Source of the DNA: Eledone cirrhosa
Lineage: Eukaryota
Direction of reading: 5' to 3'
NCBI GenBank assembly: GCA_964016885.1
Contig: OZ024745.1
Span: forward strand, 117,366,001-117,430,000
Length of the DNA: 64,000 nucleotides
Of the stretch, positions 6,946-54,908 are shown piece after piece (the stretch's first letter is position 1; every line of letters begins with the position of its first letter). Both the position numbers and the translations under genes were made by a program. The notes beneath the pieces were generated by a model. The model was given only the letters and a program-made list of their open reading frames with translations. It was not told where the DNA came from and ran no database searches.

Positions 6946-7324
6946 GAAGTTTTATTTTTATCTTTATTCATCTCATGAGTAGTTTTTACTCTGGTGTGGC
7001 ATTGGTAAACAGTATATGATTCTTGAATGAATACTGTTGTTATATCATCCATAGATTTTCCTTTGAAATTTTGATACTTAATTTTATTAGGTGAAGATAA
7101 ATGTTTTTTAACCCTTTAAGCATTTACGTTACTCTATATTTAGTATTGTGTTTATGCTGTAAAGGCTTTACTTCAAATAATCATCTCACATAATATTGAA
7201 TCTGAGATTTTTATATTATTTATTTTGAGAATAATACTTTAACGTTGGTATGAGTGGCCGGTAACAGCTGGTTTGAACAAAAAGAGGTGAGAGAATTTTG
7301 GCTGGACATAGCTGGTTTAATAAC

Positions 7325-7565
7325 AGACTGGCTGATCAGTCAGATCTGCATATTAGCAGATCCACTGATCAGCCAGATTTGCATATCAGAAGACTGGCCA
7401 ATCGGTTCCCTGTATACGAGCGATAAATGGCCGATTTTGCCAAATTCAAATAAAAAAGAAAATTTTCGCTCTACATGGCTGAATACAATACATGTAATAT
7501 GAGTTTTTCGAATATTAATAATAATATTCGATTCGTTTGCAATTATGCAAACAAGCCTCAATTTT
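7325..7565 (-). mobile_element. Partial copy of the octamer/hammerhead element at 10146-10947 (ribozyme part missing)
   Basis: Near-identical to 10449-10688. Confidence 0.85.
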
Positions 7566-8573: not shown

Positions 8574-9210
8574 GTAAGTAAAATTTGTGTTTATCATATT
8601 ATTCAGAAATTATAAAATTGAAACAATTGCATAATTTAAAAATAATGATATTTGTAATAATTGTTTCTACATTCGACACAAGGCCAGCAATTATCACAGT
8701 GTATTACTGGTTCTTTATTTTATCGACCCCGTAAGGATGAAAGGCAAAGTTAGCCGTCAGTGTTATATATATATAGGAAAAGAGTCAGAACCCCGAGGGC
8801 TGAGAGCTCCGACCGTTTCGACAGCTAGATCCAAACTGTATACATACACGTGTGTGTGTGTGTGTAATGGTAGGGTTTCACACATGTTAAAAATTTCAAT
8901 TATCTGAGTTTATCTTTGCAATGACAAGACATAATTTCCCACTAGGGCTGTTTAAAATTTAAAAAGAGCTACAAGCAAGGGTGACAACTCTAACAATATC
9001 AGCTAATCCAAATATTTGAGAAATAAAGAGAATGTAGTTAGGAAATATATCTTGCCTTTAAAGTCAACTGGTTAAACCTAAGCACATGGTTTGATCTTGT
9101 CAGATCTCATCAGTAAAGATTATTCAGTCAGTTGACTAAGCTTAGAAATGATTATGTATATCAACAATTGGACAGGGAGATAACTCGGATAGTCTTCCGC
9201 ATGATATATA

Positions 9211-10123
9211 TCTATATATATAAAACTGAGGATGTCTGTCTGTGTGTGTGAGTTCGAATCCCTAAAACTCGAGAACCATCAAACCGACTGTTTTCAAACT
9301 TTACACATGTAATACTTATGTTTCAGGGAGTGTTCTGAGCAAAATAAAATTCAAATTTTCAATGCCCTAGAGACCACATTAGGCGATTTAGCGATCTCTC
9401 TATAATTCTTAGTCTTTCTCTTTTTAGATAGATACATACATATAACGTCGCGCCCTTATAATATCTGTCTGTATGTCTGACTGTCTGCATTACGTCGCTT
9501 CCCTGAGGATGTCTGTGTGTGTGTGAGTTTGAATCCCTAAAACTCGAGAAGTACCCAACCGATTTGTTTCAAACTTTACATGTGTATTACTTATGTTTAT
9601 GGGAGTGTTATGTGTTATGCATATAAACAAATTCAACTATTTTATCTCCTAGGGCCCGCATTAGGTGAAAAACTGTGGTTTTTAAACATTTTTAGGGTTT
9701 TTTTTAGGCGTTACGTCGGACCAATTTCCTTGAAATTGTAACTATGTATTAGTCAGTCTCTTTATACTGTGAGCAAAAAAAAAAATCCAACTTTCTTATC
9801 GCCTAGGGCCCGCATTAGGTGAAAAACTTCATTTTTTCAGCTTCCTAGGGCTTTTTGGAGGTGTTACGTCTAGCTGATTTTCCCGAAATTTCAAGGCATA
9901 TTATGCACATAAAAAAAATTCATTTTCATGATCCCCTAAGGCCCGCATTAGGTGAAAACCTGCATTTTTCCTGCTTCATCAAGGAAAATCTTACCAGCCA
10001 TCAGAGTATTTGGTTTATTTTCTTTACATATTGTCCAGGCATGCAGTTTTTCCACGATTAGGTCTGTTGGCGGCCCACATTCTAAAATACCTTATCCTGT
10101 GCAATGCTGGCTACCACTGCTAG
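9211..10123 (+). mobile_element. Non-autonomous Helitron
   Basis: A|TC 5' end, decayed subterminal hairpin, CTAG|T 3' end; internal duplications (cctagggcccgcattaggtgaaaa x3). Confidence 0.75.
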
Positions 10124-10305
10124 TATATATATATATATATATATAAAAGAAAATTTTCGGTCTACATGGCTGAATACAATAAATGTAATCTGAGTTTTTT
10201 TAATATTAATAATAACATTCGATTCTTTTGCAATTTGCAAACAAGCCTCAATTTTATAGCCATGTCAGTAGAATGAACCCTTCATTCTTGCTCTTGCGTT
10301 GGCAT

Positions 10306-10366
10306 GTGAACTACAGACACCAATGTTTCAGGGTGTCGCCCTTCATCAGTACAGCTCACTGTTCAC
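10306..10366 (-). ncRNA. Type I hammerhead ribozyme
   Basis: gagctgta-CTGATGA-aggg cgaca ccct-GAAA-ca ttgg tg-TC^-tgtagttc: intact core, stems I-III pair. Confidence 0.85.
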
Positions 10367-10754
10367 CTGCCAAACTGTCAGAGCTAGTGAAAATATATTC
10401 TATTTTCAAAAATACACAGTGACTGATCGGCCTGATTTGCATATTATCAGACTGGCTGATCAGTCAGATCTGCATATTAGCAGATCCACTGATCAGCCAG
10501 ATTTGCATATCAGCAGACTGGCCAATCAGTTCCCTGTATACGAGCGATAAATGGCCGGCTTTGCCAAATTCAAATAAAAGAGAAAACTTTCGCTCTATAT
10601 GGCTGAATACAATAAATGTAATCTGAGTTTTTCGAATATTAATAATAACATTCGATTCGTTAGCAATTATGCAAACAAGCCTCAATTTTATAGCCATGTC
10701 AGTAGAATGAACCCTTCATTCTTGCTCTTGTGTTGGCATGTGACAGTTTGGTAG

Positions 10755-10820
10755 GTGAACAGTCAGCTGTACTGATGAAGGGTGATACCCAGAAACATTA
10801 GTGTCTGCAGTTCTGTTCAC
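10755..10820 (+). ncRNA. Type I hammerhead ribozyme (inverted copy, sense to host intron)
   Basis: gtgaacag-tc-agctgta-CTGATGA-aggg tgata ccca-GAAA-ca ttag tg-TC^-tgcagtt-ctgttcac; 15-bp stem I with 2-nt bulge; A.A mismatch at base of stem II. Confidence 0.85.
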
Positions 10821-10957
10821 ATGGCAACACAAGAGCAAGAATGAAGGCTTCATTCTACTGACATGGCTATAAAATTGAGGCTTGTTTGCATAATTGCAAA
10901 CAAATCGAATGTTATTATTAAAATTCGAAAAACTCAAATTACATTTATATATATATA

Positions 10958-12248
10958 CAGGGTCCGGATGATATTTGTTCGCAAGATTACTGTCTAGGAA
11001 AAAATAACACAGTAGTTTTATTTATTAAGGTATATTTATCAAACTTGGGTCAGTTTGTCTTCATGACTTGTTCTTTCGATCTCACTCGATAAACCCTGCC
11101 ATTGGCTTTGATGACGGCCTCAAGGTGGCGTCGGAACCGGCTACAGGCCTTCGTCATGTCCCCCGACTTAGGCCCCTAAAGGCACTTGTGATCCTGGCCT
11201 TCAGATCGTCTTTCATATTGCAGCTAGATTTGTTGGTGTCTCGTTCCACTGTGCCCCACACAAAGAAGTCGAGGGGGTTGCAGTCAGCGAGCTGGGAGGC
11301 CAGATGTCAAGTGAAGTGTGGTCGACAAAGTTCTCTGACAGCCAGGCTTGGGTCTTTCGGCTGGTATGGCAGGGCGCTGAGTTTTTGCTGCCACATGTAC
11401 GGCCTACCTGCAACTACCTGGTCGATCCAGGGCTTTACTACCTCGCTCAGAACGTGGATGTAGCCATCGGTGTTCAGCTTGAGGCCCTCAGGGAAGAAGT
11501 GAGGTGGCATGACATCACCTTGACTGCTGACGACACCTAAGATCAATGTTGTCGCTGGAAACTTTGTCTGCATGACTCTGGGCACGTCTTTGGATGAGAC
11601 AGCGAGCCACCTGTTGTTCTGGGAGTTGATCTTCTGGTCTTGGCAGAAGTTTTTCTCGTCAGAGAAAAACCACAGCATGTCTGGCTCCAGTGGGTGTTTC
11701 AACTTGTTGATCAGCTTCTTTGCGTGCTTCAGTCGCTTTTCTTGTATCGCCTTTGACAGAAATTGTCCTTTCCTCATCTTGTATGAAACGTAGCGAATGT
11801 CTTCATGTACCTCCAGCCTAATGAGCTTTTCATCCACGCCTTTCTCTCTTGCAATGGCACACATCGACTTGTTAGGTTCATTGTTGATGATATCTTGAAC
11901 TTCAGCGACGAAGGCGTCAGATCGTCGATCATGTGTTTTCCTCTTTGATGTTGCTTCGTGTCGAATCCTGAATCTTCCAATTCCTTTCTGACCTTTTCCA
12001 CCATTCTCCTGCTGACGCTGAGAAAGTCTGAAATTTCCTTATTTGTCCTCCCGGCGCGGATTCCAAGAAGAACCCCGGGTCTCTTCCACAAATTTGGAGG
12101 TTCAAAATTATTCATAATCAATTATTCTGAAAATAAATAATGGAAATATAGTCACTGTTTTTATGAAGACAAGAGTGACAACGGAAGTAAAAACAATTTG
12201 CATAAAATTAGCAGTTGAAAATTGCGAAAAAATATTGTCCACACCCTG
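10958..12248 (-). mobile_element. Full-length but frameshifted Tc1/mariner-superfamily transposon, DD37D (maT) type
   Basis: Imperfect ~27-bp TIRs CAGGGT..GGA..ATATTT.TTCGCAA, TA flanks; WFFSDEKNF, WQQ[D]SAPCH, WPPSS[P]DCNPLD with 37 residues between D2 and D3 after frameshift repair. Confidence 0.9.
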
Positions 12249-21677: not shown

Positions 21678-23150
21678 TATCATCATCATCATTATCGATT
21701 TTACGTCTGCTTTTCCATGCTTGCATGGATTGGACAGGTCCTTCTCAGCACGGCATCTCTCCACTTATCGTGCTCCTTCATCATCTCCGCTGCCAGTTTT
21801 AGCGATTTGAGGTCCACTCTCACAACCTCTTCTCCAGTCTTTTTGGTCGTCCTCTATTGTGACTTCCTTCCACTGGGATTTCCTGGCATTTCTTCATCCA
21901 TGTGCATCACATGCCCATACCAACACAGTCTTCTCTTGCACACCATCTCAGATTCCCCTTAAACCCAGCTTCTCCCTCAGCTCATCCAAGTTCTGCCTTT
22001 CTCTCACATTTACATTGCAAATCCAACAAAACATGGTTACTTCATTTCTCTCCAGTCTATGTATGTCTTCTATGACCACAGCCCATTTTTCGCTACCATG
22101 CAGCATCGCACACTGCACACAGGTGTCATACAGCCTCACTTTTGTACAAAGGGAGTAAACTTTTGTTGTCAGCAGTTGGAAGAGTTCTCTAAACTTCTTC
22201 TATCCTATCCTTATTCTAGCTATTATAATCATGGCACACCTTCGTCTGCTGTTAATTAGATCACCTAGATAGCAGAAGCTATCAAGCACATTTATGTATC
22301 ATTCCTGTGACTGGAAAATGTTTATATCATCAGCACTCTTCCTCTCAATTTCTCCTGTGCATCTTCTACATGCAAAGTTCTCCTTTCCTGTTAGTCTACT
22401 CATTATCCCACTACATTTTTGTGTACCCAAGATTTACAGCAGTGGCTAAGAACTGAACCTTGCGTAAGTTGGGGGTAGTTTCTCTTCTGCCTATTCATTC
22501 TCTACATTCATCAATCTCTCATGGTAATATTTCCAAGCCTCTTTCTTTTGGGCATCAGTGGTGCTAAGTGCACCAGCATCATTTCTAACTCGTTTTCCCC
22601 ACCAAAACATCTCAATTCACACTAACACACTGCTTTGCATTATGGAACACTTCACGTCTCTGGTCCTCATGTATCAAGACATTGGCAAATTTACTTTCTT
22701 TAGTCTCTCATAATAAGCTGTGTATACCTGTCACCTAGCTTCTTTCTTAGCTACCTGGTACTAGTCTCTTCTATCCCCATTTTCAGTGTTTCCATGCCTG
22801 TCTTTTGGCTTTAATGGCTGTATCTACTGTGCTGTTCCACCACCAGTTCACCCTCTGTTTAGCTGGTACTTTACTCCAGCTGAAAGCCTCACCAGTAGTT
22901 CGCAAAAGGTTGTAGCGTAAGAATGTCCAGTTGTCCTCTACATTGTATGTTTCTAGCTCATCATCCCTCTCATTAAGTGCATCACGTAGGGCCTTTCTAA
23001 ACCTATATTTAACTGAAAGGTCCTTTAGCTTCCACACCGTTGGTCTTCCTATTTTCCTATGTGTCTTGTTCTGTCTTTTGTTTATTTTGATGTCACTAAT
23101 AACCTACTTGTGCTGGGCAGTACATTCTTCCCCAGTTAGTTATTAGGTTT
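21678..23150 (-). mobile_element. Internally deleted PHD-RTE LINE
   Basis: RLYDTCVQCAMLHGSEKW...LERNE and WWWNSTVDTAIKAKRQAWK motifs; (gat)n tail at ~21678-21693. Confidence 0.85.
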
Positions 23151-25530: not shown

Positions 25531-25847
25531 ATCTACACATAAGTGTGTGTGTGATTGAACATGTTGGTGTAATTTGGTGCATTAAATTTCATCTCAAGGT
25601 ATCAGAGAGATTCAGTAAATAGAAATCGACAAAATAAATTTTCAACTGAAATAAAATATATCAGCATGACTACAGTCTAATGACTAAGGCTTAGGAATGT
25701 GTTAGTAACTTTTTAATGTAACAATTTCAAATTTTGTCACAATTTTAATGCCATACCCATTAATAGGCAAAGTTCAAGTATCAGCTCTAAAAAATAGGAA
25801 TATTTTATAACCTAACTGGTAAATCTCTATTCTATTTTTATTTTTAG

Positions 25848-26799
25848 ATGCATTAACTATTGAACGCTTTGATAATGGTCCCTTGACTCAAAGAAGTAAT
25901 AAAACAGAAGTTTTGAGGGATTGTAATATCCAAGAGTCTTACAATAAAGATCATGCTGCTTCATGCCCAGCATTAGATGAAAAATGTAACTTTGTTGCTA
26001 GTGCCACTCAGACAGATCATTCAGCTTACCAACCATTATATGGCCATCTTAATTCTTCAAACAGCTCTAGTACAAGTGGAGTTATTGATGTAGACTTCAG
26101 TTCAAGTAGCTCTCGCAGCCAAGATGGTCAGAAAAAACGCAAAAATTTTATATGCAGTTCACATAAATTTGAAACTGATAGTCAGACATCCCAAAGCATG
26201 GAGACCAATCCTGAAACTGGAACCTCTCTTGCAAGGCAAAGAAGTCCTAGCTTTAGAGCTGCTATTGAAAGTCATTCAAATGTACATTTACTACCAGCTG
26301 GAGACGATGCACAAACTAGTCGAAAAAACTCTAATTATTTGGCTGTTACACAATACCAGGGCAGTAATCATGATGAACAGATACAATGCTCACGCAACAG
26401 AAGTCTGAGTTTTCAGGCTGCTATTGAAGATGGACAACATAGTCCAATTGATACCCGTGAAACTGATGCCATATCGTCTTGTGCGGATACAACATTGGAT
26501 AATCCAAATCTTGCAGAAGGATTTACACTTGACCCATATGGAAAAATGATATTACCATCTGTGCAAACTGATTCAAGAAGTGTAAACTTTCAGTTAAATA
26601 CCATTGACACTGATATTGGGAATGAACCATTAATGTTAGGAAACATTTCACAGTCTCTGAAATCCTCTGATGATTATTATTCCGGTCATAGTTCACATTT
26701 CAAATCAGATGAATGGAAGAAATCTCATCGAATTGCTTTGAACCAAGAAGTAGAAGTATCTGTAACATATGCTTCACCTTCAGTGTCACTGGATAGCAG
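25848..26799 (+). CDS. Host gene exon G, large Ser-rich probably disordered segment (contains ORF 25883..26803)
   Basis: tttttag| acceptor in phase 1 puts it in the frame of the 306-aa ORF; cag|gtaaga donor, phase 2. Confidence 0.9.
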
Positions 26800-26857
26800 G
26801 TAAGATATTTGTAGAGAATTCTTTAAAAAAAAATTTGCATTAATTTCATTTATTTTT

Positions 26858-28883: not shown

Positions 28884-30470
28884 AGTGGACAGTATTGACA
28901 ATGAACTGTATTGCCAGATGACACTATTGACAATAGACAGTATTGCCAGTTGACAGTATTGCCAGTGGACAGTATTGCCAGTTGACATTATTGCCAGTTG
29001 ACATTATTGCCAGTTGACAGTATAGACAGTGGACAGTATTGCCAGTTGACAGTATTGACAGCAGACAATATTGCCAGTGGACAGTAATGCTGGTGGACAG
29101 TATTGCCAGTTGACATTATTGCCAGTTGACAGTATAGACAGTGGACAGTATTGGAATGGAACAGTGTTGACAGTATTGTAAGTTGAGAGTATTGCCAGTT
29201 GACAATGGAGAGTATTGCCAGTTGACAGTATTGACAATGGACTGTATTGCAAGTTGACAGTGGACAGTATTGCAAATTGAGAGTATTGTAAGTTGACAGT
29301 ATTGCCAGTTGACAGCATTGCCAGTGGACTGTATTGGCAGTGGACAGCATTGCCAGTTGACAGTATTGGCAGTGGAAAGTATTGCCAGTTGACTGTATTG
29401 ACTGTGGACAGTATTGGCAGTTGACAGTATTACCAGTTGACAGTGTTGACAGTATTGCTAGTTGACAGTATTGGAAGTGAACAGTATTGACAGTGGACAG
29501 TATTACCAGTTGACAGTGTTGACAGTATTGCTAGTTGACAGTATTGGCAGTGGACAGTATTGCCAGTGGAAAGTATTGCCAGTTGACAGTGGACAGTAGT
29601 GCTAGTTGACGGTATTCACAGTGGACAGTATTGTTAATGGACAGTATTGGCAGTTGACAGTATTGTCAATGGATAGTATTTGTCAGTTGACAGTATTGAC
29701 AGTGGACAGTATTGCCAGGGGACAGTTTTGTTAGTTGACAGTATTAGCAGTGGACAGTATTGCCAGTTGACAGTATTGCTAGCAGACAGTATTGCCAGTT
29801 GACAGTATTTCCAGTTAACAGTATTGGCAACGGATAGTATTGCCAGTTGACAGTATTGCAAGTTGGCAGTATTGCCAGTTGACACTATTGCTAATGGACA
29901 GTATTGTCAGTTGACAGTAATGCCAGTTGACAGTATTGCAAGTGGGCAGTAATGCCAGTTGACAGTATTGCCAGTTGACAGTATTGCCAGTTGACAGTAT
30001 TACCAGTTGACTGTATTGCCAGTGGACAGTATTGCCCGTTGACAGTGGACAGCATTGCCAGTTGACAGTATTGACAGTGGACAGTATTGCCAGTTGAAGT
30101 ATTGTCAATTGACAGTATTGCCAGTTGACCGTATTGCCAGTTGACAGTATTGCCAGTTGACAGTGGCCATTAGTGACAGTAGACAGTATTGCCAGTTGAC
30201 AGTATTGCCAGTCTACAGTATTGCCAGTTGACAGTATTGCCAGTTTTCAGTATTGCCAGTGACAGTATTGGCAATGGACAGTATTGCCAGTGGACAGTAT
30301 TGCCAGTTGACAGTATTTCAGTGAACAGTATTGCCAGTTGACAATATTGCCAGTGGACAGTATTGCCAGTTGACAATATTGCCAGTTGACAATATTGCCA
30401 GTGGACAGTATTGCCAGCTGACAGTATTGCCAGCTGACAGTATTGCCAGCTGACAGTATTGACAATGGAC
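28884..30470. repeat. Minisatellite of 16-bp unit GACAGTATTGCCAGTT (~100 units, with variants)
   Basis: Visible directly; source of the spurious LAILSTGNTVNWQYCQ ORFs. Confidence 0.95.
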
Positions 30471-31464: not shown

Positions 31465-33170
31465 CATTAGGGTATAATGTGGGGCTGTAATACAGGAAAG
31501 TTTTGTGCAATTTATGTTTACAAGCCGAAATTGCCTCAGATTTTTTGTTTAAGATGTGGTCTTTGGCGTAGAGTATTTCCAGGGCCTCAGCGGTGCAGAG
31601 GTCACATGGTCTTTTATTTCCGTTATACGATCTAGCCTAAGCTAGGATCTCCCAGTGTAACTTATATTGGGTGTAGTTGTCTTTTAGACTCCAGATATAA
31701 GCTGAAAGTGACATCATATTCCTTCTTAAAGGGTTAAGAAAAGAATGGGTATGCATGTAAAGACGCTGCTTGAATCTATTGGCGGTTAACCCTATGTAGG
31801 CCCTACAGGACGTGGGTGTTTCAACCTTACATTTGTAGACAATGTTACTAGAGAGGCATTTCCTGGATAGGGGGCAGTCAACCCGATTCCTACAATTACA
31901 GTTAGTACTAGCTACAGGGTTACACGTGTTCCTACGGCTAGGTAGTTCAGCTAAATTTGAAGCTGTGATGTTTTGTGCAAAGTTAGGAGTCGTAGAGTAA
32001 GAGATTTTAATGGTATTTCTATTAAAAATGTTACTATATTTATGTGCTGGGGGGAAATGCTTCATAATAAGGGAGAGAAAGATCTCAGCTAATGGTGTGG
32101 CCACCTCCATATTATATGGTGGGTTATACCATATAATGCGTCGGGATCTATTTTTCCTAGGTCTATTCTCGTACTCTGTATAAGCTACCTTATCGACAAA
32201 TCCACTCCAAGCAAGAGCTTCATTGTAATATGTGGAATGGTCGTTGAAAATATGCTCGTTTGTGGATAGACAGGAAAGCCTCAAAGAAACGTTTCTTACC
32301 AGGTTCTTGGTTATGTTGGTAGGATGGTTAGAATGCTTACTTATGTAATTAAGTGTATCATTCGGCTTTCTATACGGGTTGCAAGCCATTCGGCAAATTG
32401 AGGGTAACATCAAGGTAATTATCGACCGAGAGGTTGGCCTCAACCTGTATGGAGAGGTTGAAGCCTTTAAAGAAGGCTGTGAGTTCTTTTCTGAACCTGT
32501 CGCAAGCACGTGGGCTGCACTTTGTCATGGTCAAAAGACCATCATCACGGTACAAACCACTGCCCACGCTGGGGAATTATTCCTTGATAGAGAAATGAAG
32601 GAAAAAGCCGATAAGATCAGTAACCTCTGCAGAATCGCTGGCGCCCATACTCACGTCGAATAGGGTACTTTTTTAAATCCAAATAGAGTCGTCGAAATTA
32701 ATCACCGACTTCCGGGCATTGAGGATGACATCAACTTCGAAATCCTTAACCACTGTGAGTGGTTTAGCGAAATTGATAGCTCTAAGAAGAAGTGGTAAAG
32801 TGATAGAGGAGTAGTAATTATTGATGTTGAATTGGTTAAAACAGCAATGTTCCTTGTTGCATATGCCGTTGAACCAATCAATCACCGCGAAAGAATTGTT
32901 CCACAGTACAAGAGGGGCCAAACTTCTAATTTCAGGTATAATTCTATCTAAAATCCTTTTACTAAGTCTACCTAAATCGGACTTCATAGGGTTAATAAAC
33001 CAAATAGAGGGGTTGTTCAGGAAATTGGATTTGTGATCCTTCAGGGTAAAGTGGGGAGAAATAGGGTCCAGAGGTTCAGTCCGGTCCAGGATGTTGAGAT
33101 CAGAGGTCATTTTAAACCCAGCATCGTTGATTTCATTAATGACGCTGCGATTAGTTTTACGGTAATCCTT
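31465..33170 (-). mobile_element. 5'-truncated Penelope-like retroelement (RT + GIY-YIG endonuclease), frameshifted
   Basis: TLKDHKSNF..NP..INPMKSDLG, MGASDSAEVTDL, GLYRDDGL, YISKHSNHP, WYNPPY, CNCR...CPL..KCL..NIVYKC...YIGLT..FKQR. Confidence 0.92.
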
Positions 33171-33589
33171 AGATATATATATAGTTATGTAATAAACAGC
33201 ATAAGATAATTATTTCATTTACCAATGGGTTCTTGGAGACAGATACTTATGTTTGTCTTCATTCATCAGAAAAAATATTTATTATGGAATAGTGATATGG
33301 ATTTGAAAACAGAGTTTAGGATAAATGAAAGTGAGACTGAAATAAAATAACGGGCATAAGTTGAGGGGAAAAAATATATAAATATCCAAATACATAAACA
33401 TACATATACACAAACTCACGCATATATGTAATAGTATGTAAACATATATATATTCACACATAGTATATGTGCGTCTGCATGGAAATACAAATACACACAT
33501 ATACGTGCGATCTTTCGCTCACATATGTGCACGCACAGTCACGCAATCACACACGTACTCAATATTAACGTATAAATATATATACACAC

Positions 33590-34949: not shown

Positions 34950-35428
34950 TCATTTTTCAGTATCTGTTTTTGTTTTTCTGTAAAGAAAACTCTCCTTCAA
35001 AAGTTTTACTTAATAAATTCACAAAATTTCATATACAACATTTAATTTACAGAAGTTACTCTAGATTCAAAAACAATTTTGGAACTGCAAATGAATGATT
35101 TGCTGGTAAATGCTGCAAAAGAGATTAGATTTGATAAACCTAACTAGAAATAATTGTTTCTACTTTAGGCACAAGGCCAGCAATTATCCAGTACATTACT
35201 GGTACTTTATTTTATCGACCCCGTAAGGATGAAAGGCAAAGTAACCTAATTAGAAATAATAATTCTTCATAAGGAAAACATTCCTTAATTGATAGTATAC
35301 TTCAAATTTCATTAAAATACTTCTATATTTATGTAAGTATATGCGTGTAAGTTTAAGAACATTTATGTCAGAATAAACTAAAAAAATTACTGTAAATGCT
35401 ATAATGTAATATTTTTGTTGTATTTCAG

Positions 35429-35750
35429 TAGTTCTGATGTTCCCCAAAAGTCATGTATTCGTGACAGTAATCTTCTAAGAAGTGGATCAAATACTGAAGG
35501 GATCCAAATTATTAATAACAGTGAAATGTCATTAAAGACTAATAAAGCTCCTGAAGTTGAATCAGAAATGTCATCTACAAGCCATGTTCAGTTAAGAAAC
35601 ATACGAAAATTAGGCGTTCATTCCATGGAATTTCCTAAAGAAGCTCTACTTCAAGATGAAAATGTTGGCTCAAATTCTTTAAAGCTAGCCAATAACAAAG
35701 AGGTAACAATTTGCACACAGAAGCAACAGGAAATAAACTCTACACCAAAG
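35429..35750 (+). CDS. Host gene exon H (SSDVPQKSCIRDSN...INSTPK)
   Basis: tatttcag| acceptor in phase 2 matches exon G; aag|gttagt donor phase 0 (alternative in-frame donor gag|gtaaca at 35703). Confidence 0.8.
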
Positions 35751-36637
35751 GTTAGTATAATGAGTGCTTCTTCTTCCACTTGTTCTTCACTCACATATTC
35801 CTGAGAGGGTCGTGGAGACAGAGTCCTCAAGTACTCCTTTCAGTATGTCCTGTCAGAAGCAACCATTTCTAATTGATCCAACTGGATCCCCACGCGAGAC
35901 TAGCCAAGTTCATGGATGTTATCCAACCATCTTGCTTGAGGTTTACCCCTGGGTCTCCTGCCGGTTGGTTTTGCCCATAAAATCTGTCCAGTGATTCCCT
36001 CCTCAGACATTCTAACTACATGGCCATACTATTGGAGCTATGATCTCTCAATTTGGAGCAGTAGTGGCTCTACCTGGAGTGACTTTCTGACCTCCGGGTT
36101 ATGCACTCTATCAAGTAACTTACTTCGAAGACCCTTTACCGGGTTGGTAATTTCTTTGTTGACCTTGAAAGGATGAAAGGCAAAATAGACCGTAGCAGGA
36201 TTTTAACTCAGAACAGTGACCCAGAACAAATGCCCAACACTCTTATGACTGCCAAATCGACACTCTTAACACTTGTGAATATATATATGGAAGTGTGTGG
36301 CCTAGTGGTAAGGGTGTTGGACTTACGACCATAACGTTGTTGGTTCAATTGGACTGGGTTGTGTGTTGTGTTCTTGAGCAAAACACTTCATTTCATGTTG
36401 CTCCAGTATACTCAACTGAAAATGAGTACCAACAATAGCTGGGAGTATTGTACTCTCAGTCGCTTAACGCCATGGAAACCGGGATAAGCACCGGCCTGAT
36501 GAGCCTCCGGGCTCGAGATGGGCTTTAGACTTTGTGAGATAAACATCGTCCTCTGACCTGATTCTCTCCCTAAGGGTCTGCCCATCCTACCCATGCTAGC
36601 ATGGAAGATGGACTTTAAATGATGATGATGATGATGA

Positions 36638-38442: not shown

Positions 38443-41100
38443 GTATAAATGCAAGTTTACGATTCTGTGTGTCCACCTAAAACTAGCAAACTACCGGACC
38501 AAACTCCTCAAAATTACATGTACATATTCACTATACATTCGGACAGGTAACGGTTGAAAAAGTTTTACTTTGCAAAGCAAGGAATTCATTTAAATTCAAT
38601 TTATCTTATTTTCTAATGAATATCAAAAGAGATCCATTTTGTTTTTTTATGTTCTCCAGTCTGTAGATAAGAGAGGCAGGGATGGGAGAGAGAAAGAGAT
38701 AGAGAGTAAGGGATGAGAGAGAGAGAGAGATAGTGAGTGGATGGGAGAGAGAGTAAGGCGATGTGAGAGAGAAATAAAGAGAGTAAGGGATGAGAGAGAG
38801 AGTGGGAGTAAGGGGATGTGAAAGAGAAAGAAAGAGAGTAAGGGGATGAGAGAGAAAGACGATGAAAGAGAGAGAGGGAAAGTAACCAGCGTTCTTAACT
38901 TTCATTTATTTATTATTTTTACACACTTTTTAACTCTTCCGCTTCCTTAACGTTATTTATCTTTTCTTTATTTTTTGTTCTCTCTTCCGTAGAGAGAGGG
39001 GGATGTGAGAGAGAAAAAGAGAGAGAGAGAGTAATGGGATGGGAGAGAGAGAGGGAAAGCAGCTAGCGTTCATTAACTTTAATTTATTTATTATTTTTAC
39101 ACACTTCTTAACTCTCCCAATGTTATATTTTATTTATTTTTTGTTTGCTATATGGTAGAGGATGAGAGAGAAAGAAAGAGAGGAGATGAGAAAGAGAAAG
39201 AGAGTGAGGCGGATGGGGAGAGAAAGACAATAAGAAAAGAGAAAAGATGGGAGAGAGAAAAAAAGTAAAGAGGCAGGAGAGAGAAAGGGTGGTTGGTGGG
39301 ATTATTTACCGAACGAACGTGTGTCCGCATTTATATATATATTTACACACACATATGTGTGTTAGCAGACGATATATCATACCATCAAAGCTTATTTTAT
39401 ACATATGTCTAAAGAAATCACAGATGCTTTTATAGAAGTTGTATATATGTATGTATTTAATAGACAAAAAAAAAAAAATACATGTCTAAAATTAATTACA
39501 CCTAATATGCATTCATATAAAGAGATCATTTAAAACAACTTTACTGAGTGAACAATACATTCTATAGTTGTTTCTATTTCGGAAAGAGTGTGGTGTATAA
39601 TAATTGTTTCTACTTTTGGCACAAGGCCAGCAATTATTCCAGTGCATTACTGGTACTTTATTTTATCGTGTGGTGTGTAATAATATCACTTGAAATGCCT
39701 AGAAAACGTTCAAGATCATTATATGGAAGGTCATCTTCAGAGGCTAAGAGAAAGAAAACACACCGATCTGAAGAAAGTGAAGAAGTTCGGCATGCCCGTC
39801 TAGCTGCTAACAGAGCCCAAACAGCTTTAGCATGAGCACACCATTTGGATGAAAGGGAACAAAGGACTGCTGCTACACAAGAACAACAAATTAAGGAACA
39901 GCAGCAAATCAGACGAAATGCTAATCAAGCACATCGTTCTACTACCCGAGCAGGAAAACAAGCCACAAGTAAAATGAACTGGCTGATGGGTGCTTTTTCT
40001 TATGACCCCAAAAGGACTACAGCAGTAATCCACGAATCAACATTGGGAAAAAGAACAAATGCTGCCAGTATTGTGGTGCCAAGAAGTGGGCAGCAGAAAC
40101 ACCATGTCTATGCTGCTCAAAAGGCAAAGTGAGCCTTAAAACAATCCAAGAACCTCCTGAATTTCTGAAGAATCTGCTCCTTCAGCATACACCAGAAGCA
40201 CGACACTTCAATAAATACATCATAAAATATAATTCTGCCTTTCAAATGACATCTTTTGGGGCTGACAGGAATGTGACTGACTTTAGATTCTGTACAACTT
40301 ATAAAATTCAGGGATAGAGTTACCACTTAATGGGTGGCTCTCTGCCACTTTCACAGAAGCCTCATAAATTTGTGCAGGTTAACTTCATGGGTGGAAATGA
40401 AACACAGGCACAACAAAGATGTACCAATGTCCATGGTGGATTGCAGTTCTATATAGTCATAAAGTTACAAGAAATGCTTCACCAACATCACATGTACGTC
40501 AGTGTATTTAAATATGCACTGGAGCATATGAACAACACCAGGGATCGTAAAATCATCATTAGGGCAGACAAACGCCCAGCTTCAGAACATGAATGCAGAT
40601 TCAATGCACCTGTCACTGATGAAGTTGCATTCATAATTGTTTCTACTTTAGGCACAAGGTCAGCAATTACCCAGTGCATTACTGGTACTTTATTTTATCG
40701 ACCCCGTAAGGATGAAAGGCAAAGTCAACCTCAGCGGGATTTGAACTCAGATCATAAAGGGACGTAACTATGCTGGAAAGCATGGCGTCCGACCCTCTAC
40801 CGATACTGCCAATCCACCGCTTGCAATCATAATGGTTGATGAACAGCATGAACGACGTGACATTGTTTTGCAAAAACGAAGTGGACATTTGGAGCAAATT
40901 TGTAAAACTCATAGAGCCTATGATTCACTCCAATATCCACTCATCTTTTGGAATGGTCAAGATGGATATCATTTTCAGCTACGGCAGATCAGCCCTGGAT
41001 CGGGACAAGAAACTGGCCAATCAAACAGCTGCAAAGAATTCTATGCTTAACATTTCATGGTATGTGATCACTTCAACAAAGTTCTGCAATTCAAAGAATT
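38443..41100 (+). mobile_element. Helitron remnant with disrupted RepHel N-terminal region (39695-41100), interrupted by SINEs
   Basis: CQYCGAKKW..E..LCCSKGKV, KYNSAFQMTSFGA, HECRFNAPVTDEVA, HRAYDSLQYPLIFWNGQDGYH; SINE 40638-40820 has 13-bp TSD (40625-37/40821-33). Confidence 0.88.
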
Positions 41101-41278
41101 ATAGAGAGAGATCGCTAAATCGCCTGATGCGGTCCCTAGGCCATTGAAAATTTGAAATTTTTTTTGCTCAAAACACCCACAGGACCATAAGTATTACATG
41201 TGTAAAGTTTGTAAACAATCGGTTGGGTGGTTCTGGAGCTGACAGACAGAGAGACATTCTCTGTTTTAGATATATAGA
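41101..41278 (-). mobile_element. 5' end of a non-autonomous Helitron related to 9211-9400
   Basis: Reverse-complement similarity to 9211-9400; A|TC terminus. Confidence 0.7.
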
Positions 41279-41466
41279 TATATATAGTTTTTTTCATTGC
41301 TTTGGTGCTGTAGCTAGGCTTACCTGCCCAGTTTTCAATTTTTCTTGCTATCTAATGCATATTATAACTCTGAGCTCCAGCCTCATCGAGTGCGTGGCTG
41401 CAGATTCTTAATTGTATATCGTTAGCTTGGCCACGGCCTAAACTTCGATCTTACTAAACTTCCATT

Positions 41467-41788: not shown

Positions 41789-42865
41789 TGCCCAAATAAT
41801 ATCGATATAAGAATTATATCGACATTAATAGATTAGTGATGGTCTCCCTCAGCACTAAGAAGAGACTGGTAGATTAGAAAATCAAGCAGTCCTCCCAAAG
41901 ATAAAATACACGCTGTCCCCAAGAGGGTAAGGGGAGGTCATCTTAAAATAAAACAATATACACGCTGGTCATTTAAATCTGTTAGGTATTAACCACGTGT
42001 ATAAGAACTCAATTGGATATTAAAAGAATAACTATATGTATACACATATATATTACTCTTTTTCCTTTTCTGCCTGAAGCCATGCTGGGGCACTGCCATT
42101 GAGTGGCTTGGCAGTATTGGTAGAGGGTCGGACGCCATGCTTTGACGCATAGAGTTACGGCCCTTGCCATTCTGAGTTCAAATCCTGCCGAGGTTAACTT
42201 TGCCTTTCATCCTTACGGGGGTCGATAAAATAAAGTACCAGTAATGCCCTGGGTAATTGCTGGCCTTGTGCCAAAAGTAGAAACAATTATATATATATAT
42301 AAGTATGGATATGTACACACATATATATATGTACACACATATATATACATATATATATATATATATTTCGTTTCTGAATTTGTTTAGCAAGATTCTTTAT
42401 CTGAAAACATGTGTGGAATAGCATCATCACAACTTACAATTAAGGACAAAATGAAAACACACACATAGAACAAACAACCAACCAGTAACATGTAAATAAA
42501 CAAATATAAACACACACAGACACCCGGATGTAACACATGCGCAAACTAAGCACACAACACACACAAAAACAAGATGGCAAAGGACAGAACAAAGGAGAGG
42601 CAGAAAAACAAAGAAAAGAATCCCCAGTCACTGAAGAGGTCACAGAATGTGTGGCGAAAGAACTTTGACAATATATGAACAATCGTCTGGTTGTGGAACC
42701 AACCAACCAACCGGAAATTTATAAATTTAATTTATAATAAATTGAAGTGAAAGCAATTGGTGCGTGTGATTCTTATTGGCAACATGACCCTCCCAAAGCA
42801 TAACAATATATATATATATATATACACACACATATATACATATACATATGTACGCATGGATTATA

Positions 42866-43245
42866 TCGAATATTAATAATAATATTCAATTCGTTTGTAA
42901 ACAAATGGTCCAATTAGCAGCTGTGCCGTGCTGACAACCAATCGTCACCTGTTTGTTCAACACTGGCTTTGAGGAACAATCAACGTCTCTGGGTCATTAC
43001 CCTTCTTTAGGACTGTATGCCTCTGCCAATCTGTTGAATGGTTGAAAATATATAGTATTTTCTTAAGTATATATCGACTGAGTAGCCTCATTTGCATACT
43101 GAGCGAGTTACAGCTGGCCTTGCCGAAAATTAAAAATAAAATTAGAATTTAATTTCTCACCCTAGCACAGCTGATACATAAATGTAAGTATGCATACGTA
43201 TATATGTACTGTGCTAGGGCGAGAAATAAAATTCTAATTTTATTT
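42866..43245 (-). mobile_element. Octamer/hammerhead element, decayed core, with short terminal inversion
   Basis: ctaaaga-agggtaatgaccca-gaga (decayed core); ATTTGCAT at 43090; about 43135-43170 inverted at 43208-43245. Confidence 0.7.
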
Positions 43246-44018
43246 ATATATATATATTATAAACCTCACCCTTGCACAATCTGTGGATTTGCTGGAAAAT
43301 CCCTATCATGCCCAATATAAACATCCAAACTGGATGAAATCGACGTGAGAGTCCATCATACTATAATATTTATTCTTATATTATTATTTTGTAGCACAGT
43401 TTCATTTCATTATAAAACAGCTTGCTTTCAGTTAGAAATCTTCTTGGAAAAGGTTAGGCTATCACAGATGTTATTTCTCCCTCTCTTTGGTTTCATGTCT
43501 GAGTTAGAAATAAATTTATACTATTTCGAAAGTTATGTGTCATTGATTATGTTACTATGATAACAGAATCACATATCTTTTTATATCTAAATTGAGAAGC
43601 AATTTGGAATGCTTAAAATGCAACATGCACATATTCACTTGCACATTTCACTCGCATCAAATGAATCATATTCCACCTACTTACTATTTACTGTAATTTG
43701 TATTCAATGCTACTTATTATGCATCTGACATTTTTCTGTTGTTAAAGTAGTGATTCAGTTTGAATATACACTTGAAGCAAGATACTCCTGAATCACAATC
43801 AGTGCACTAGCAATTATGATTGCTGTTAAAAGACCTTTTGTGTATTGAGCTATGAGACATTAAAACATAGACAGATTGCATTGTGTTCATTTCAGTGAAT
43901 GGTCATTTCTGGATCTTAACAAGATAATTACATGGAAGAAAATACTGTATATTATCTCATAACTTATCTGAGTGTTTCTTGAAATTTCTGTTATAGTTTA
44001 TATATTTCTATTTTCCAG

Positions 44019-49599: not shown

Positions 49600-50095
49600 A
49601 ACTTTGTGTTGTGTAATCAGTAAGGAAATAACCCTGCAAGTAATTGAGATGTTGTCCAAGTCTTAAAAAAAAAATGAGACTTTGCAGATTTGAAATATAC
49701 ATATACATGTATATGCCATAATTTCTCTAGCCCCTGAACAATCTTCCTGACTTCAGAGATTGGTGTTGATATCACTGTGAGGTCATCAATAAAGGTTCTG
49801 ATTGGTGATTGCTTTAAATCTGACTTGTTGAGTGGTCCCTGGTACATTTTCTCTACTGATTTGATCAGTATATTCATAGCCTGAGTGAAGACAGTCACTG
49901 AGATAATGTACCCAGTGATTATCCCTACTTCCAGCTGGTAGTAGGAGACCCTCAAATTGAACTTACTGATGAGATCATTCACCTTGTGGTACATAATGTC
50001 TCTTCGACTCAACCTCGACCAGTTTGTGAGGTATTCAGTTGTATGTGATGGACAGATCCACGCAGAGCTCTACCAGGTTGCATTTGCCTTTGAGT
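49600..50095 (-). mobile_element. Decayed non-LTR RT fragment (Hero/RLE-group-like)
   Basis: LEVGIITGYIISVTVFTQAMN...GPLNKS..QSPIRTFIDDLTV. Confidence 0.65.
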
Positions 50096-50347
50096 GCTGA
50101 AAGCTCTAAATTGCTGCACAGGGTTACTTCATTTCAATACCTGGGTATCATCAGTTACCGTTGATTGTATATATATATATATAATTGGGATTTAGCTTCA
50201 TGCATAGCTGTATGCAGATATGTATTGGAATTTTGTATTTCTAAAGAAATACTGTATGTTTATAGATAAACATTTAGAAAGTCGTAGCTATGCAAAACAC
50301 CGGAGCTATCACCCTCCGGTGGTGTCCAGCAGAAGTAAGGGAGGACA

Positions 50348-50391
50348 ACTGTCAATGCATTTCGAACTTAACTGGTCCTCATCAGGATGAC
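50348..50391 (-). ncRNA. Minimal type I hammerhead ribozyme (stem I decayed)
   Basis: gtcatc-CTGATGA-ggac cagttaa gttc-GAAA-tgca-TT^-gacagt. Confidence 0.7.
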
Positions 50392-50672
50392 CCCCCTACT
50401 CTTGCAACTGCTGGACTTGAAAACAGGTGAGAATATATGGTTTTCTCGTCTGTGTAAATAAGGTGGTTAATCTCATTTGCATATGAAGTTGCATAAGTTG
50501 GCTTAATTAATAATAGAATAGAATTAGGATTTAGCTTCATGCATAGCTGTATACAAGTTGAGCCAACTTATGCAGCTTCATATGCAAATGAGATTAATCA
50601 CCTCATTTACACAGACGAGAAAACCATATATTCTCGCCTGTTTTCAATCCAGCAGTTGCAAGAGTGGGAGGG

Positions 50673-50716
50673 ATCGTCCTGATGAGAACCAGTTAAATCT
50701 GAAATGCATCGACGAT
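50673..50716 (+). ncRNA. Minimal type I hammerhead ribozyme (stem II weakened)
   Basis: atcgtc-CTGATGA-gaaccagttaaatct-GAAA-tgca-TC^-gacgat; perfect 6-bp stem I; palindromic ATGCAT stem III. Confidence 0.8.
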
Positions 50717-51419
50717 TATCCTCCTCGCTTCTGCTGGACACCACCAGAGGGCGATAGTTGCGGTGTTTTGCATAGCTACGACTTTCTAAATGTTTATCTA
50801 TAAACATTTAGAAAGTCGTTTGGAAATACGAAATTCCAATACATACCTATATATGATAGTAAAAAAGAAAAAACAGTAGAAAATGCTAATGGGATTTTCT
50901 CATAGAATAACAGCAAAACATTTATTTACAAAAAAAGGAATTTATCGTACTGGTTTCAGCCACGTGGGTGTCTTCATGCCACAGAAGAGGATAATAAAAT
51001 TTATAATCGAGTTTAGTTGTATATTAATAAGAATATGGTATAAAATAACATGCTTTACATATGTGTATATATAGAAGAGTTCACATTTTTTTTATCGCTT
51101 TCTTTCTTTGGTGGTGCTGACTATAACTGCAGCAGTGGTAGTGAAAGTAGCAGAGGACTAGCTTGTTCTATGTTCTTGGTGTTGACCTTAACTGTAGTTG
51201 TAGTGGTTGTAGCAGTAGAGGGGGAGAAGGGGAAGAAAAAGAGGAGGGGTAGAAGAAGTAGAGGAGGAAGAAGAGGAAGGGAGGGGATGAGGTGTGGTAG
51301 TAATAAAAGAGTTATGGCAAAGAAGGAAGGGAAAGATGAAGAAGGGGTGGGCGAAGCAGAAGGGGACGACGGGAAGGTTTAGTAGTAATAGTATCACTAT
51401 TATTAGTAGTAAATGGAGC

Positions 51420-52470
51420 TGTCCGTGGGATTGACTTAAATGATTGAGTGACCTTAGAGTTGATTGAGGAATTGTTTCTTAATATATCTATCTTGGTATT
51501 TTTGTCGGTAATGCTGGCACTCTTAGTTTGTCCGGTGGTGTTAAAAATTGACCTGCAGTGTGATTGTTTCTAAAGATATCGATCTCCCTTAATTTGTCCA
51601 TTGGTGTTAATGTTAGGTGCTCGTTGCAATTTCGTCTGCAGCGGAAGCATTTAAAAGGGGTTCGTATTTTGTGATAAATTGTGATTTTTTTTTAATGCTG
51701 TGAATGTAGAAAGCGTTGTCTTTAGATTTGTTGAGGGAAAAAATTCTGAAGTTGGGTTGTTCATTAGAGGCACAGGTGGCAATGTCTTCACTCAATGCTA
51801 TTTTTCTGTATTCTTGTATTTTAATTTGGGATCTATGAACGGTCATATGTTGATGAAGACTGTTAGTAATCTCTCCTATGTAGTGCTCTCGACAGCCTGA
51901 GCAAGTTAACACATCAATCGGGTTTTCTGATGCGCATGTGAAATTGTATTTCACTGTAAAGTGTTGCCCTTGTTTGAAGCAGAACTCCAATCCCTCTATT
52001 AGGTTGACGCATATACCACAATTGGGTCTTCTGCATTTTTTTTACTGTTGGTTTCGTTGTTGTGGAAAGACTTATTGAATTTAAAGCACTTCTAAAGAGA
52101 CTTAACACAAACATTCAATTCATGGTGGAATACAGCCACCAGCAACTCCCTTTCTATGACATCCTTATTAAGAAAGTTAACAACAAAATAGAGACAGACA
52201 TATACTTTAAGCCCACACACTCCAAGCAATATCTTCCATTCAACTTATGCCATCCAAGACACACTAAAATGAATATCCCTTACAACCTAGCCAAAAGGAT
52301 CTGTACAAGAGTTTCTGATAGTAACACCTGTTACATACGACTACAAGGACTAAAGGACACACACTCATTAACAGGAATTACCCACCATCCCTAATTAATA
52401 ATGTATTCCAATGTGCCGTAAAACTCAGAATCCAGGATCTTAGACAACCAAACTAAAGAATGAATCGAAA
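51420..52470. mobile_element. Penelope-like element with 5' inversion: GIY-YIG part on minus, RT thumb part on plus
   Basis: Minus: CRRPNCGIC...FTCASEN..VLTCSGCREHYIGE; plus: LNTNIQF..E....LPFYD...TDIYFKPTHSKQYLPFNLCHP. Confidence 0.88.
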
Positions 52471-52588
52471 CTGTATATATAATAACAACAAAGTGGAAGT
52501 GTTACATCAAAAATTTATTGATCAGACCTAGTTACAACTGTTTCACAAACAGTCAGCTCATGATCCAGGTTAATATTCAAAACCAGAT

Positions 52589-53700
52589 ACAAGTAGGAGT
52601 ACATCAGGGTTCGGTCCTCAGCCCGCTCTTGTTCATTATAGTCCTCCAAGCCATAACAGAGGAGTTTAAGACTGGCTGTCCATGGGAACTTCTCTATGCT
52701 GACGATCTGGCTCTTATAGCAGAATCAGTAGAGGAGCTAGAGAATAAATTCCAGCTATGGAAACAGCAGTTGGAAGCAAGAGGACTGAGAGTAAATCTAG
52801 CTAAGACAAAAGTGTTGATGAGTAGAAAAGAGGACAAAACCCTGATTCCGTCAGGGAAATGGCCATGTTCGATATGCAGAAAAGGAACTGGCATAAATTC
52901 TATAAAATGCACACAATGCAGGTCCTGGGTACACAAGAGATGTAGCGGGATAGCAGGCAAACTAACAGGTAGGGAGAAATATGTATGCAGTAGATGTACA
53001 GGGAAATTAGACAGTAGAAGTCGCACTGATAGACACATTTTTCAAATGCGAGAGGGCGCTATAGAAGTGGTGGATAGCTTCCGGTACCTAGGAGATCAGA
53101 TTAGCATGGGAGGAGGGTGTTCCGAGGCCATAGTATCTAGAATAAGGACGGGTTGGAAGAAGTTTAGGGAGCTGCTTCCTCTGTTGACGAAGAAGGGTTT
53201 CTCCCTGCATACGAAAGGCCGGTTGTATGATGCCTGTGTGAGGAGCGCGATGCTGCATGGTAGTGAGACATGGGCAGCAACCGCAGAGGATATGCGACGG
53301 CTGGAGAGAAATGAGGCAAGCATGCTCCGTTGGATGTGCAGTGTAAATGTGCGTGAACGACCCAGCATAAATGTGTTGAGAGAGAAACTGTGTCTGAGAG
53401 GGATAGAATGTAGTGTACGGGAGAGGAGACTGAGGTGGTATGGACATGTGATGCGCATGGAGGATGACCGATGGGTGAAGAAGTGCCAGGAAATGCCAGT
53501 TGAAGGAAGATGTGGTAGAGGTAGACCACGAAAAACATGGGCGGAGGTGGTGAGAACAGACCTCAGATCATTGAAGCTCACGGTGGAGATGACGAGGGAC
53601 CGTGACGAGTGGAGAGATGCTGTGCTGAATAAGACCCGTCCCACCCTTGCAAGCAGGGAAAAGCGGACGTAAAATGATGATGATGATGATGATGATGATT
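52589..53700 (+). mobile_element. Young 5'-truncated RTE LINE, open frame, PHD finger inside RT, (GAT)n tail
   Basis: GVHQGSVLSPLLF, LLYADDL, KTKVL, C4HC3 finger, FRYLG, RLRWYGHV, GRGRPRKTW; 6-bp TSD ccagat (52583-88/53701-06). Confidence 0.95.
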
Positions 53701-54394: not shown

Positions 54395-54611
54395 TATATA
54401 TATATATATATATACACACACATATATATATATACATGCACTTACACACATACATATACATATATATATGTGTGTATGTATGTATATATATATCTATATC
54501 TATATATATATATATATAAGTATGTATACATACATACATATATGTATACAGACGTACAGTAGTATGTATATACATACATACATGCACACATATATATGTA
54601 CGTATGGGTTT

Positions 54612-54908
54612 ACCGAATATTTATTATAATGTTCAGTTTGTTTGTAAACAAACAGCCCGAATTAGGCCGTACAGTGTTCGGCAACCATTGTTGCGCTTTT
54701 TTTCAACACTGACAAAGGAACGATGAACTAGTTTCTAGCTTATTAGCTGTCATCAGCACCGTATACCTTCCTGTCAGTCGATTGAATGTTTGAAAGTATA
54801 TACTTTCTTTATGCATATTAATGGCTGAGCAGCCTAATTTGCATATCGTGTGAGTTAGTCGGCCAATTCTAATTTTCAATTTCTGCTTGACCAGCAACCG
54901 CTCTGTAT
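54612..54908 (-). mobile_element. Octamer/hammerhead element, single unit
   Basis: Collinear with 42866-43170; ATTTGCAT at 54837; TATA-like gtatatac; intact HHR core. Confidence 0.8.
54720..54762 (-). ncRNA. Minimal type I hammerhead ribozyme
   Basis: acggtg-CTGATGA-c agct aata agct a-GAAA-c ta g-TT^-catcgt; palindromic ACTAGT stem III. Confidence 0.8.

Follow-up and report, generated by a model that had tools for sequence, protein, structure and literature searches.

A probable PLE-mobilised hammerhead retroelement of the non-LTR retrozyme type in the genome of Eledone cirrhosa

We describe here an element, A, that in our estimate (probability about 0.83) represents a single insertion of a non-autonomous hammerhead retroelement of the non-LTR retrozyme type, written into a (TA)n microsatellite by the enzyme of a Penelope-like element (PLE) acting in trans. 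The evidence base is one 64-kb window, i.e., a stretch of 64,000 nt of the Eledone cirrhosa genome (contig OZ024745.1, positions 117,366,001 to 117,430,000), to which all coordinates below refer. The element class and the tandem-plus-inversion architecture are already known, and the layout alone is ordinary for PLEs. What the present analysis adds is a tail signature common to divergent families and a conserved octamer-to-ribozyme module, neither of which was found in print; as judged from listings, the open-licence literature yielded no description of cephalopod or octamer-bearing retrozymes, or of tails in retrozymes.

Layout and target site of element A

The unit of A has a period of 433/434 nt, positions 10141-10309 recurring at 10574-10743 (170 nt, 93.5%), while 10741-10948 repeats 10179-10380 in reverse-complement orientation (208 nt, 89.4%; E 2e-75 in a comparison of the window with itself). 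The element, 1.39 units in total, consists of a full non-coding unit of 433 nt (10141-10573, minus strand, which is the RNA sense; GC 0.37; no frame of at least 120 aa), a partial tandem unit of 170 nt (10574-10743, minus strand) that ends 6-9 nt before the next ribozyme cut site, and an inverted copy (10741-10948, plus strand) that spans -64 to +137 relative to the cut, with a microhomology of 3 nt (10741-10743) where the tandem part meets the inverted one. The sequence-only reading had given this layout as ~430, ~165 and ~205 bp, figures that we now recognize as lengths without the TA microhomology, and had rightly placed a second hammerhead in the inverted segment, where a type I core is found on the plus strand (10772-10805, cut after 10805). 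It had also claimed that the two orientations differ by many substitutions and a 5-nt indel, and indeed we counted 16 substitutions in 202 sites, proportionally no more than separate this element from another copy at 7318-7565 (13/248; Fisher p 0.25), in addition to the 5-nt indel, a duplication immediately 3' of the cut in the inverted copy, and another indel of 1 nt.

A is inserted in (TA)n, with a Helitron-like element on one side and a Tc1/mariner element on the other. The left flank is a (TA)11 microsatellite (10124-10145), the last 3-5 nt of which are microhomologous to the element end, and the right flank is a (TA)n stretch (10949-10957) directly followed by the Tc1/mariner element; both outer ends of A enter (TA)n with 3-5 nt of microhomology, and no target-site duplication is readable in the repeat. 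TA at both sides and long inverted arms (89-95%) could also belong to a MITE or foldback DNA transposon with a TA target duplication. However, the arms are not terminal, as the left one begins 38 nt inside and the termini match at 10-11 of 30 positions, so that the TIR-bearing termini of a DNA transposon, named by the sequence-only reading as a finding that would overturn it, are not what we observe. Moreover, relative B and the 7318-7565 fragment (see below) have no inverted arm, the arm lengths vary widely (208, ~290 and 38 nt) and the ribozyme is conserved. We regard this reading as largely refuted, its residual probability being minimal.

The Tc1/mariner element (10958-12248) is near-complete, with 30-nt TIRs (23/30), TA on both sides, a frameshifted transposase and DDE homologs; a PDB sequence search with its frame gave no match, and the octamer that it contains at 12196 is probably a chance occurrence. 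The non-autonomous Helitron-like element (9210-10123) has a 5' TC, internal repeats of 133-275 nt and a 3' hairpin with CTAG, these being the sequence features from which we take the repeat ending at 10123 to be Helitron-like, and a relative of it lies at 41094-41285. A dispersed SINE-like repeat of ~190 nt is abundant (88-97% identity, 5'-truncated copies included), with copies at 6581, 8655, 15059, 35149, 40633, 42103, 46716, 58909 and 59221. A long degenerate minisatellite array with a short AT-rich unit occupies 28884-30470, and several related LINE remnants of the RTE type, in which the RT is accompanied by a PHD-like finger, are found at 52464-53672, 60596-61359 and 21679-22432. The window also contains an exon of a host MRVI1/IRAG-family gene (25823-26800, plus strand; 78% identical to an Octopus bimaculoides protein and 65% to the Argonauta counterpart), which marks the host as an octopod; 35382-35804 (plus strand) possibly belongs to the gene as well. 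Pfam matched one of eight proteins (RVT_1/PHD in a LINE), with no match in six transposon or host frames, nor in four PLE-like homologs.

Relatives and insertion ends

Family A has a further fragment of 248 nt at 7318-7565 (minus strand, 94.8%), which crosses the unit-unit junction and carries no ribozyme. Three other families are represented in the window, all on the minus strand. Relative B (54590-54870) is a single 5'-truncated copy with a hammerhead (54756-54726) and an octamer at 54837. Relative C (42830-43246) comprises ~1.02-1.06 units of 356 nt, with a decayed hammerhead core at 43010, an octamer at 43090 and an inverted tail copy of 38 nt at 43209-43246. Relative D (50179-50848) comprises a 339-nt unit with a 38-nt repeat (50179-50555), i.e., 1.11 units, followed by an inverted copy of ~290 nt (about 50556-50848), and has two hammerheads and octamers at 50475 and 50582. 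B and C were found by BLAST, their alignments to A scoring 162 and 183 against maxima of 110 and 101 in 300 shuffles, and the two arms of D were picked up by a profile built from A, B and C (E 1e-5); the pairwise link between A and D is weak (109 against a shuffle maximum of 103; 47% identity), and pairwise identity among the four families ranges from 47 to 72%. Octamers at 30946 and 31381, which lie in unrelated TA/CA-rich sequence, were rejected as relatives.

Tandem-plus-inversion is present in three of the five copies (A, C and D), and the ends of the copies share positions. Counted from the ribozyme cut, with the ribozyme strand as the RNA sense, A is joined to its target at +137 (inverted part, site 1) and at +170 to +175 (tandem part, site 2), and D at +138 and +175; were ends distributed uniformly, the chance of both D ends falling within 5 nt of those of A would be about 0.001. 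The interval between the two sites forms a tail of 38 nt in A (10141-10178, minus strand, at the left end only) and in D, and of about 44 nt in C by homology. Altogether, seven of the eight target-joined ends of the five copies lie at or near the two sites: the tandem ends of A and D and the inverted end of C at site 2, and the inverted ends of A and D, the end of B (+130 to +136) and, loosely, the tandem end of C at site 1. The last stops 8-24 nt short of the site 1 homolog, in low-complexity sequence, and the 7318-7565 fragment ends at +307, away from both sites. TA microhomology by itself does not account for the shared ends, as TAT occurs at 16 sites in the unit.

The PLE literature describes a typical insertion as a partial tandem with an adjacent inverted 5' copy and a tail (PMC8557442), and an RT that starts at two internal RNA sites, which bound an optional genomic tail of 30-40 bp (PMC11167929); the purified Anolis PLE protein is described as cleaving and extending both strands and as preferring AT-rich DNA (PMC11167929). 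A, C and D have the partial tandem with the adjacent inverted 5' copy, and the segment between the two presumed RT start sites has the length of such a tail. Hence, the PLE-type insertion proposed by the sequence-only reading is supported, and further strengthened by the 38-nt tail signature, which that reading did not contain. A rearrangement at the DNA level, in which break repair duplicated a satellite monomer or a dispersed copy locally and inverted it by fold-back, independently of PLEs, would agree with the junction microhomology, with the TA-rich flanks between two other transposons and with the equal divergence of the copies, but it leaves unexplained that one layout recurs in three elements, each of a different family, and that their ends coincide at two homologous positions, and repair would not choose ends by their distance from a ribozyme; we hold such an origin to be highly unlikely.

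PLE-like ORF remnants of the RT/GIY-YIG type are present in the window at 31637-33209 (minus strand) and 51613-52394, both broken; the latter consists of two pieces in opposite orientation and thereby shows a 5' inversion too. Octamer-less PLE-type minimal hammerhead remnants at 42631-42806 (plus strand) and ~50855-50990 (minus strand) directly adjoin relatives C and D, and a decayed hammerhead-like core (50090-50165, minus strand) lies immediately left of D. This adjacency, with D located at the apparent 3' end of the 51613-52394 remnant, suggests either that the elements insert into PLE ends or that both use the same (TA)n target. The four-family profile matches none of the pLTRs of the PLE ORF remnants in the window, and an autonomous partner with a matching pLTR was not found there.

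Given that architecture and ribozyme type are identical to those of autonomous PLE insertions, and that retrozymes and pLTRs are described as close kin (bioRxiv 10.64898/2026.07.22.740005), the elements could be 5'-truncated ends (pLTRs) of an autonomous PLE, with the junction produced by template jumping at insertion and the 433-nt "unit" being no monomer. However, A has no ORF, and junctions made at insertion would vary each time, whereas the unit-unit junction, when compared from site 1 through the tail, site 2 and the linker as far as the octamer, proves homologous in three family pairs (A and C, 0/1000 shuffles; A and D, 3/1000; C and D, 1/1000). The 7318-7565 fragment likewise has the same junction and none of the private changes of the A copies, although it lies merely 2.6 kb from A and may not be independent. 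The sequence upstream of B does not resemble the A or the C junction, equally high scores being reached by 627 and 601 of 1000 shuffles, respectively. Since the junction is homologous between families, it is a family property, and the RNA template included it; truncated pLTRs thus appear to us an unlikely explanation.

Hammerhead ribozymes and octamer module

A motif scan detected two type I hammerhead cores in A, one on the minus strand (10349-10316, within the hammerhead 10306-10359 of the full unit; predicted cut between 10316 and 10315) and one on the plus strand, in the inverted copy. Strict and relaxed scans yielded only three hammerheads, a pair in A and a single one in B; the decayed hammerheads of C and D escaped these scans and were recovered by alignment. 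Rfam reported no hammerhead, either over the whole window at the gathering score or within 9900-11200 at E<=10 (ten sub-threshold matches at E<=10 were chance matches, none of them to a hammerhead), and the isolated hammerhead motifs of A fold weakly better than shuffles (z -1.6); hence, the ribozyme call needed comparative support. The putative ribozyme of A is thus called from its complete core, its stems and covariation with the relatives. In a structure comprising hammerhead stems I and II, the hairpin of the ATATA element described below and two hairpins before site 1, 88% of 135 cells were paired and 12 of the 27 pairs showed two-sided changes (0/500 shuffles; 35-47% paired in slid controls), in a test of five sequences, two of them from one family, with the structure chosen from the same alignment. 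The two adjacent short hairpins (10199-10244, minus strand) lie just upstream of end site 1, show compensatory changes across all four families and may represent an RT recognition signal.

Helix III is self-complementary in all four families, all 10 nt pairing as a dimer in A, and the minimum-energy fold of both A motifs is inactive, 7-10 kcal/mol below the active fold. The self-pairing helix III and the inactive monomer fold suggest that the hammerhead of A is of the dimer-dependent type of metazoan repeats and PLEs, whose type I hammerheads are described as dimer-dependent with a self-complementary helix III (PMC4209133). No tandem carrying two complete ribozymes is present in the window; the tandem part of A has a single one, hence monomer release is impossible and A is probably a dead end. 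Folded as a circle, the A unit reaches z -6.9 against 60 shuffles, and that of relative D -4.2.

The sequence-only reading had emphasized a triplicated octamer at 33-bp spacing. The three octamers are present at 10435 (ATTTGCAT), 10468 (ATCTGCAT, a one-base variant) and 10501 (ATTTGCAT), but their triplication is restricted to family A, being common to the 7318-7565 fragment with the variant middle octamer included, and it matters less than the single octamer conserved in all four families. In A, a 33-nt array of 3.2 copies (10423-10529, minus strand) includes the three octamers and a CCAAT at 10522 in a long hairpin, the triplicated block folding as one hairpin of 138 nt (z -8.7). A CCAAT box 15-20 nt upstream of the (distal) octamer was seen in A (10522) and B (54863) and is absent from C and D. 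In the four-family alignment 75 of 301 columns are invariant, and the longest invariant run is TATGCAAAT, a 9-nt extended octamer (permutation P 0.0004). Downstream of the octamer, all four families have an AT-rich element of consensus ATATA(T/C)T(T/C)TC at 43-44 nt and the ribozyme core at 87-97 nt; in A the element (10389-10407, minus strand, 44 nt downstream) combines a TATA-like run with the 3' arm of a hairpin or palindrome. Seven of the 15 octamers of the window sit in these elements, 6.5 being expected in all.

On these sequence features, the octamer is likely to act as a POU-factor promoter element, and the octamer-bearing region is probably an internal promoter. A PSE reading at 10422-10400 was rejected, as it is not conserved in B, C and D. 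Alternatively, octamer and ATATA might be conserved as features of the RNA, i.e., a protein-binding site and a hairpin, with the triplication retained since a long hairpin stabilizes a rod-like circle. In accordance with this, ATATA forms the 3' arm of a hairpin (92% paired cells, one two-sided change), the variant base of the middle octamer pairs inside the strongly folding triplicated block, the octamer-to-ATATA spacer is poorly conserved across families with no demonstrable PSE, and the description of the D. virilis Penelope promoter in PMC2377424 presents it as TATA-less and downstream and mentions no octamer. On the other hand, the octamer matches the POU consensus at 8/8 positions in all four families without covariation and keeps a constant 43-44 nt from the AT-rich element, and newt satellite 2, described as having an internal snRNA-type promoter (PMC2220036), provides a precedent. 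Taken together, we consider conservation at the RNA level a doubtful, minority explanation.

RNA template, proposed origin and known systems

The sequence-only reading had argued that a longer-than-unit copy needs a circular or multimeric template, and lengths of 1.39, 1.11 and 1.02-1.06 units in three elements, together with the homologous junction, uphold this. It had further proposed that circularly permuted copies would support a circle; mapped on the copies of the window, however, the ends are fixed at two sites and not permuted, and they thus neither support nor exclude it. Among four copies of family A, 78 four-way columns contain nine private, one multi-state and no shared splits. Hence, the differences between orientations are uninformative on the template type. 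Moreover, since these differences are private and the divergence does not exceed that from the separate fragment, decay after insertion from like templates would suffice, and the substitutions between the A copies fit it. Different templates for the two orientations were rejected as unsupported (0 shared columns of 78; p 0.25), and so was a ligation scar as the source of the 5-nt indel, a local duplication several nt 3' of the cut.

We give a circular template a chance approaching even and a linear multimer a somewhat smaller one, whereas an in-register jump between cut monomers seems rather unlikely. In D, the first cDNA extends as far as site 1 in the unit upstream, the point from which the second cDNA starts, as twin priming on a dimer predicts, and this junction leans toward a linear template. 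So does the stop of the first cDNA of A 6-9 nt from the next cut site, although, with about seven free cDNA ends in all, a single stop at such a position may be coincidental. The copies seem to keep the presumed promoter upstream of the presumed start, which leans toward a circle, since in each generation a linear transcript would come out one promoter short, a loss to be made good by a circle, a template jump or an unequal crossover.

We propose that a master tandem elsewhere would have been transcribed into more-than-unit RNA, probably from the internal octamer-bearing promoter. The hammerheads would cut mainly as dimers via the self-complementary helix III, a structure that we observe and an activity that we presume, and some junctions would remain uncut or be re-ligated into circles. 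The RT/GIY-YIG enzyme of a PLE, to which the tail signature points, would then nick both (TA)n strands, and two cDNAs would begin inside the RNA at the fixed positions seen as ends, site 2 (+175) and site 1 (+137), each via 3-5 nt of TA microhomology. The first cDNA would have run 603 nt across one ribozyme junction and the second 208 nt, and joining of their free ends by the 3-nt microhomology seen at the junction would have created the tandem-plus-inversion. About 3% neutral decay per copy would have followed, in keeping with the observed star pattern.

More broadly, and tentatively, we speculate that these families may form an old cephalopod retrozyme superfamily with a fixed module of POU octamer, AT-rich element, dimer-dependent hammerhead, twin hairpins and RT start sites 38 nt apart. 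The module might then contain its own complete promoter, either related to the one in newt satellite 2 or convergent with it, combined with a docking site for PLE RT, and internal priming at two sites, using both strands of the target and a circular RNA, might regenerate the promoter in every cycle. If true, the insertions would provide direct genomic evidence for PLE RT mobilizing retrozymes; the Discussions of PMC7229834 and bioRxiv 10.64898/2026.07.22.740005 treat enzyme, template and transcription of animal retrozymes as open questions. The end signature offers a cheap genome-wide test of PLE mobilization that is independent of phylogeny, and it delimits a cis cassette of ~300 nt. If true, a mobile POU-octamer promoter would be one candidate for the origin of POU sites scattered over cephalopod genomes.

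L1 twin priming produces 5' inversions from two primed cDNAs joined by microhomology, and in D the tandem part likewise stops where the inverted part starts on the template. Unlike L1 insertions, A and its relatives show no poly(A), no readable TSD and fixed internal cDNA starts, and the two cDNAs of A overlap by 132 nt. The promoter of newt satellite 2 holds an octamer and a PSE; A has the octamer, whereas no PSE is demonstrable in it. Satellite 2 is described as a hammerhead repeat of ~330 nt whose snRNA-type Pol II promoter lies inside the repeat (PMC2220036; PMC7229834). Its ribozyme works as a dimer, as is predicted for A, but within the window A and its relatives occur as dispersed short copies and not as arrays.

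Non-LTR retrozymes have been reported in the mussel, in coral and in axolotl, and PLEs have been put forward as their helpers (Cervera and de la Pena 2020, PMC7229834), those of mussel being 350-390 nt long with a ribozyme likewise predicted to be blocked by self-pairing (PMC7229834). Like metazoan non-LTR retrozymes, A has a non-coding, highly self-paired head-to-tail unit within the 150-450 nt range (433 nt, GC 37%, 1.39 units) with a type I hammerhead of complete catalytic core. No LTR-type direct terminal repeats with fixed ends were seen in A. It does not contain the run of at least two successive units with a complete ribozyme in every unit by which an "active" copy is defined (Li et al. 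2026); hence, it falls among the monomers of that scheme, and we class it as an offspring copy and not as an active master. A differs from the described retrozymes in its cephalopod host and, with its relatives, in the dispersed copies of 1.0-1.4 units, the 5' inversion, the 38-nt tail and the conserved octamer module. For vertebrate retrozymes, Li, Clavereau and Pollet (2026, bioRxiv 10.64898/2026.07.22.740005) support a PLE origin by co-occurrence and pLTR phylogeny, and the link as presented there and in PMC7229834 rests on co-occurrence, a shared ribozyme and pLTR phylogeny, not on insertion ends.

With EN+ PLEs (Penelope/Poseidon, Neptune; PAc of Anolis), A shares the partial tandem, the inverted 5' copy and the 30-40 bp tail at one end, as well as a hammerhead upstream of the RT start sites and an AT-rich or microsatellite target, as these are described in PMC11167929 and by Craig et al. 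(2021, PMC8557442), and relative D matches the Penelope form described as a body flanked by direct tail repeats (PMC2377424). Unlike them, A has no ORF for a telomerase-like RT and GIY-YIG endonuclease, and it is a unit-length repeat, not pLTR-ORF-pLTR. D. virilis Penelope is described as having an internal TATA-less promoter (PMC2377424), and its Inr/DPE type contrasts with the upstream-type octamer of A. In its workings, A is like a PLE-mobilised non-LTR retrozyme, an offspring copy and not an autonomous PLE.
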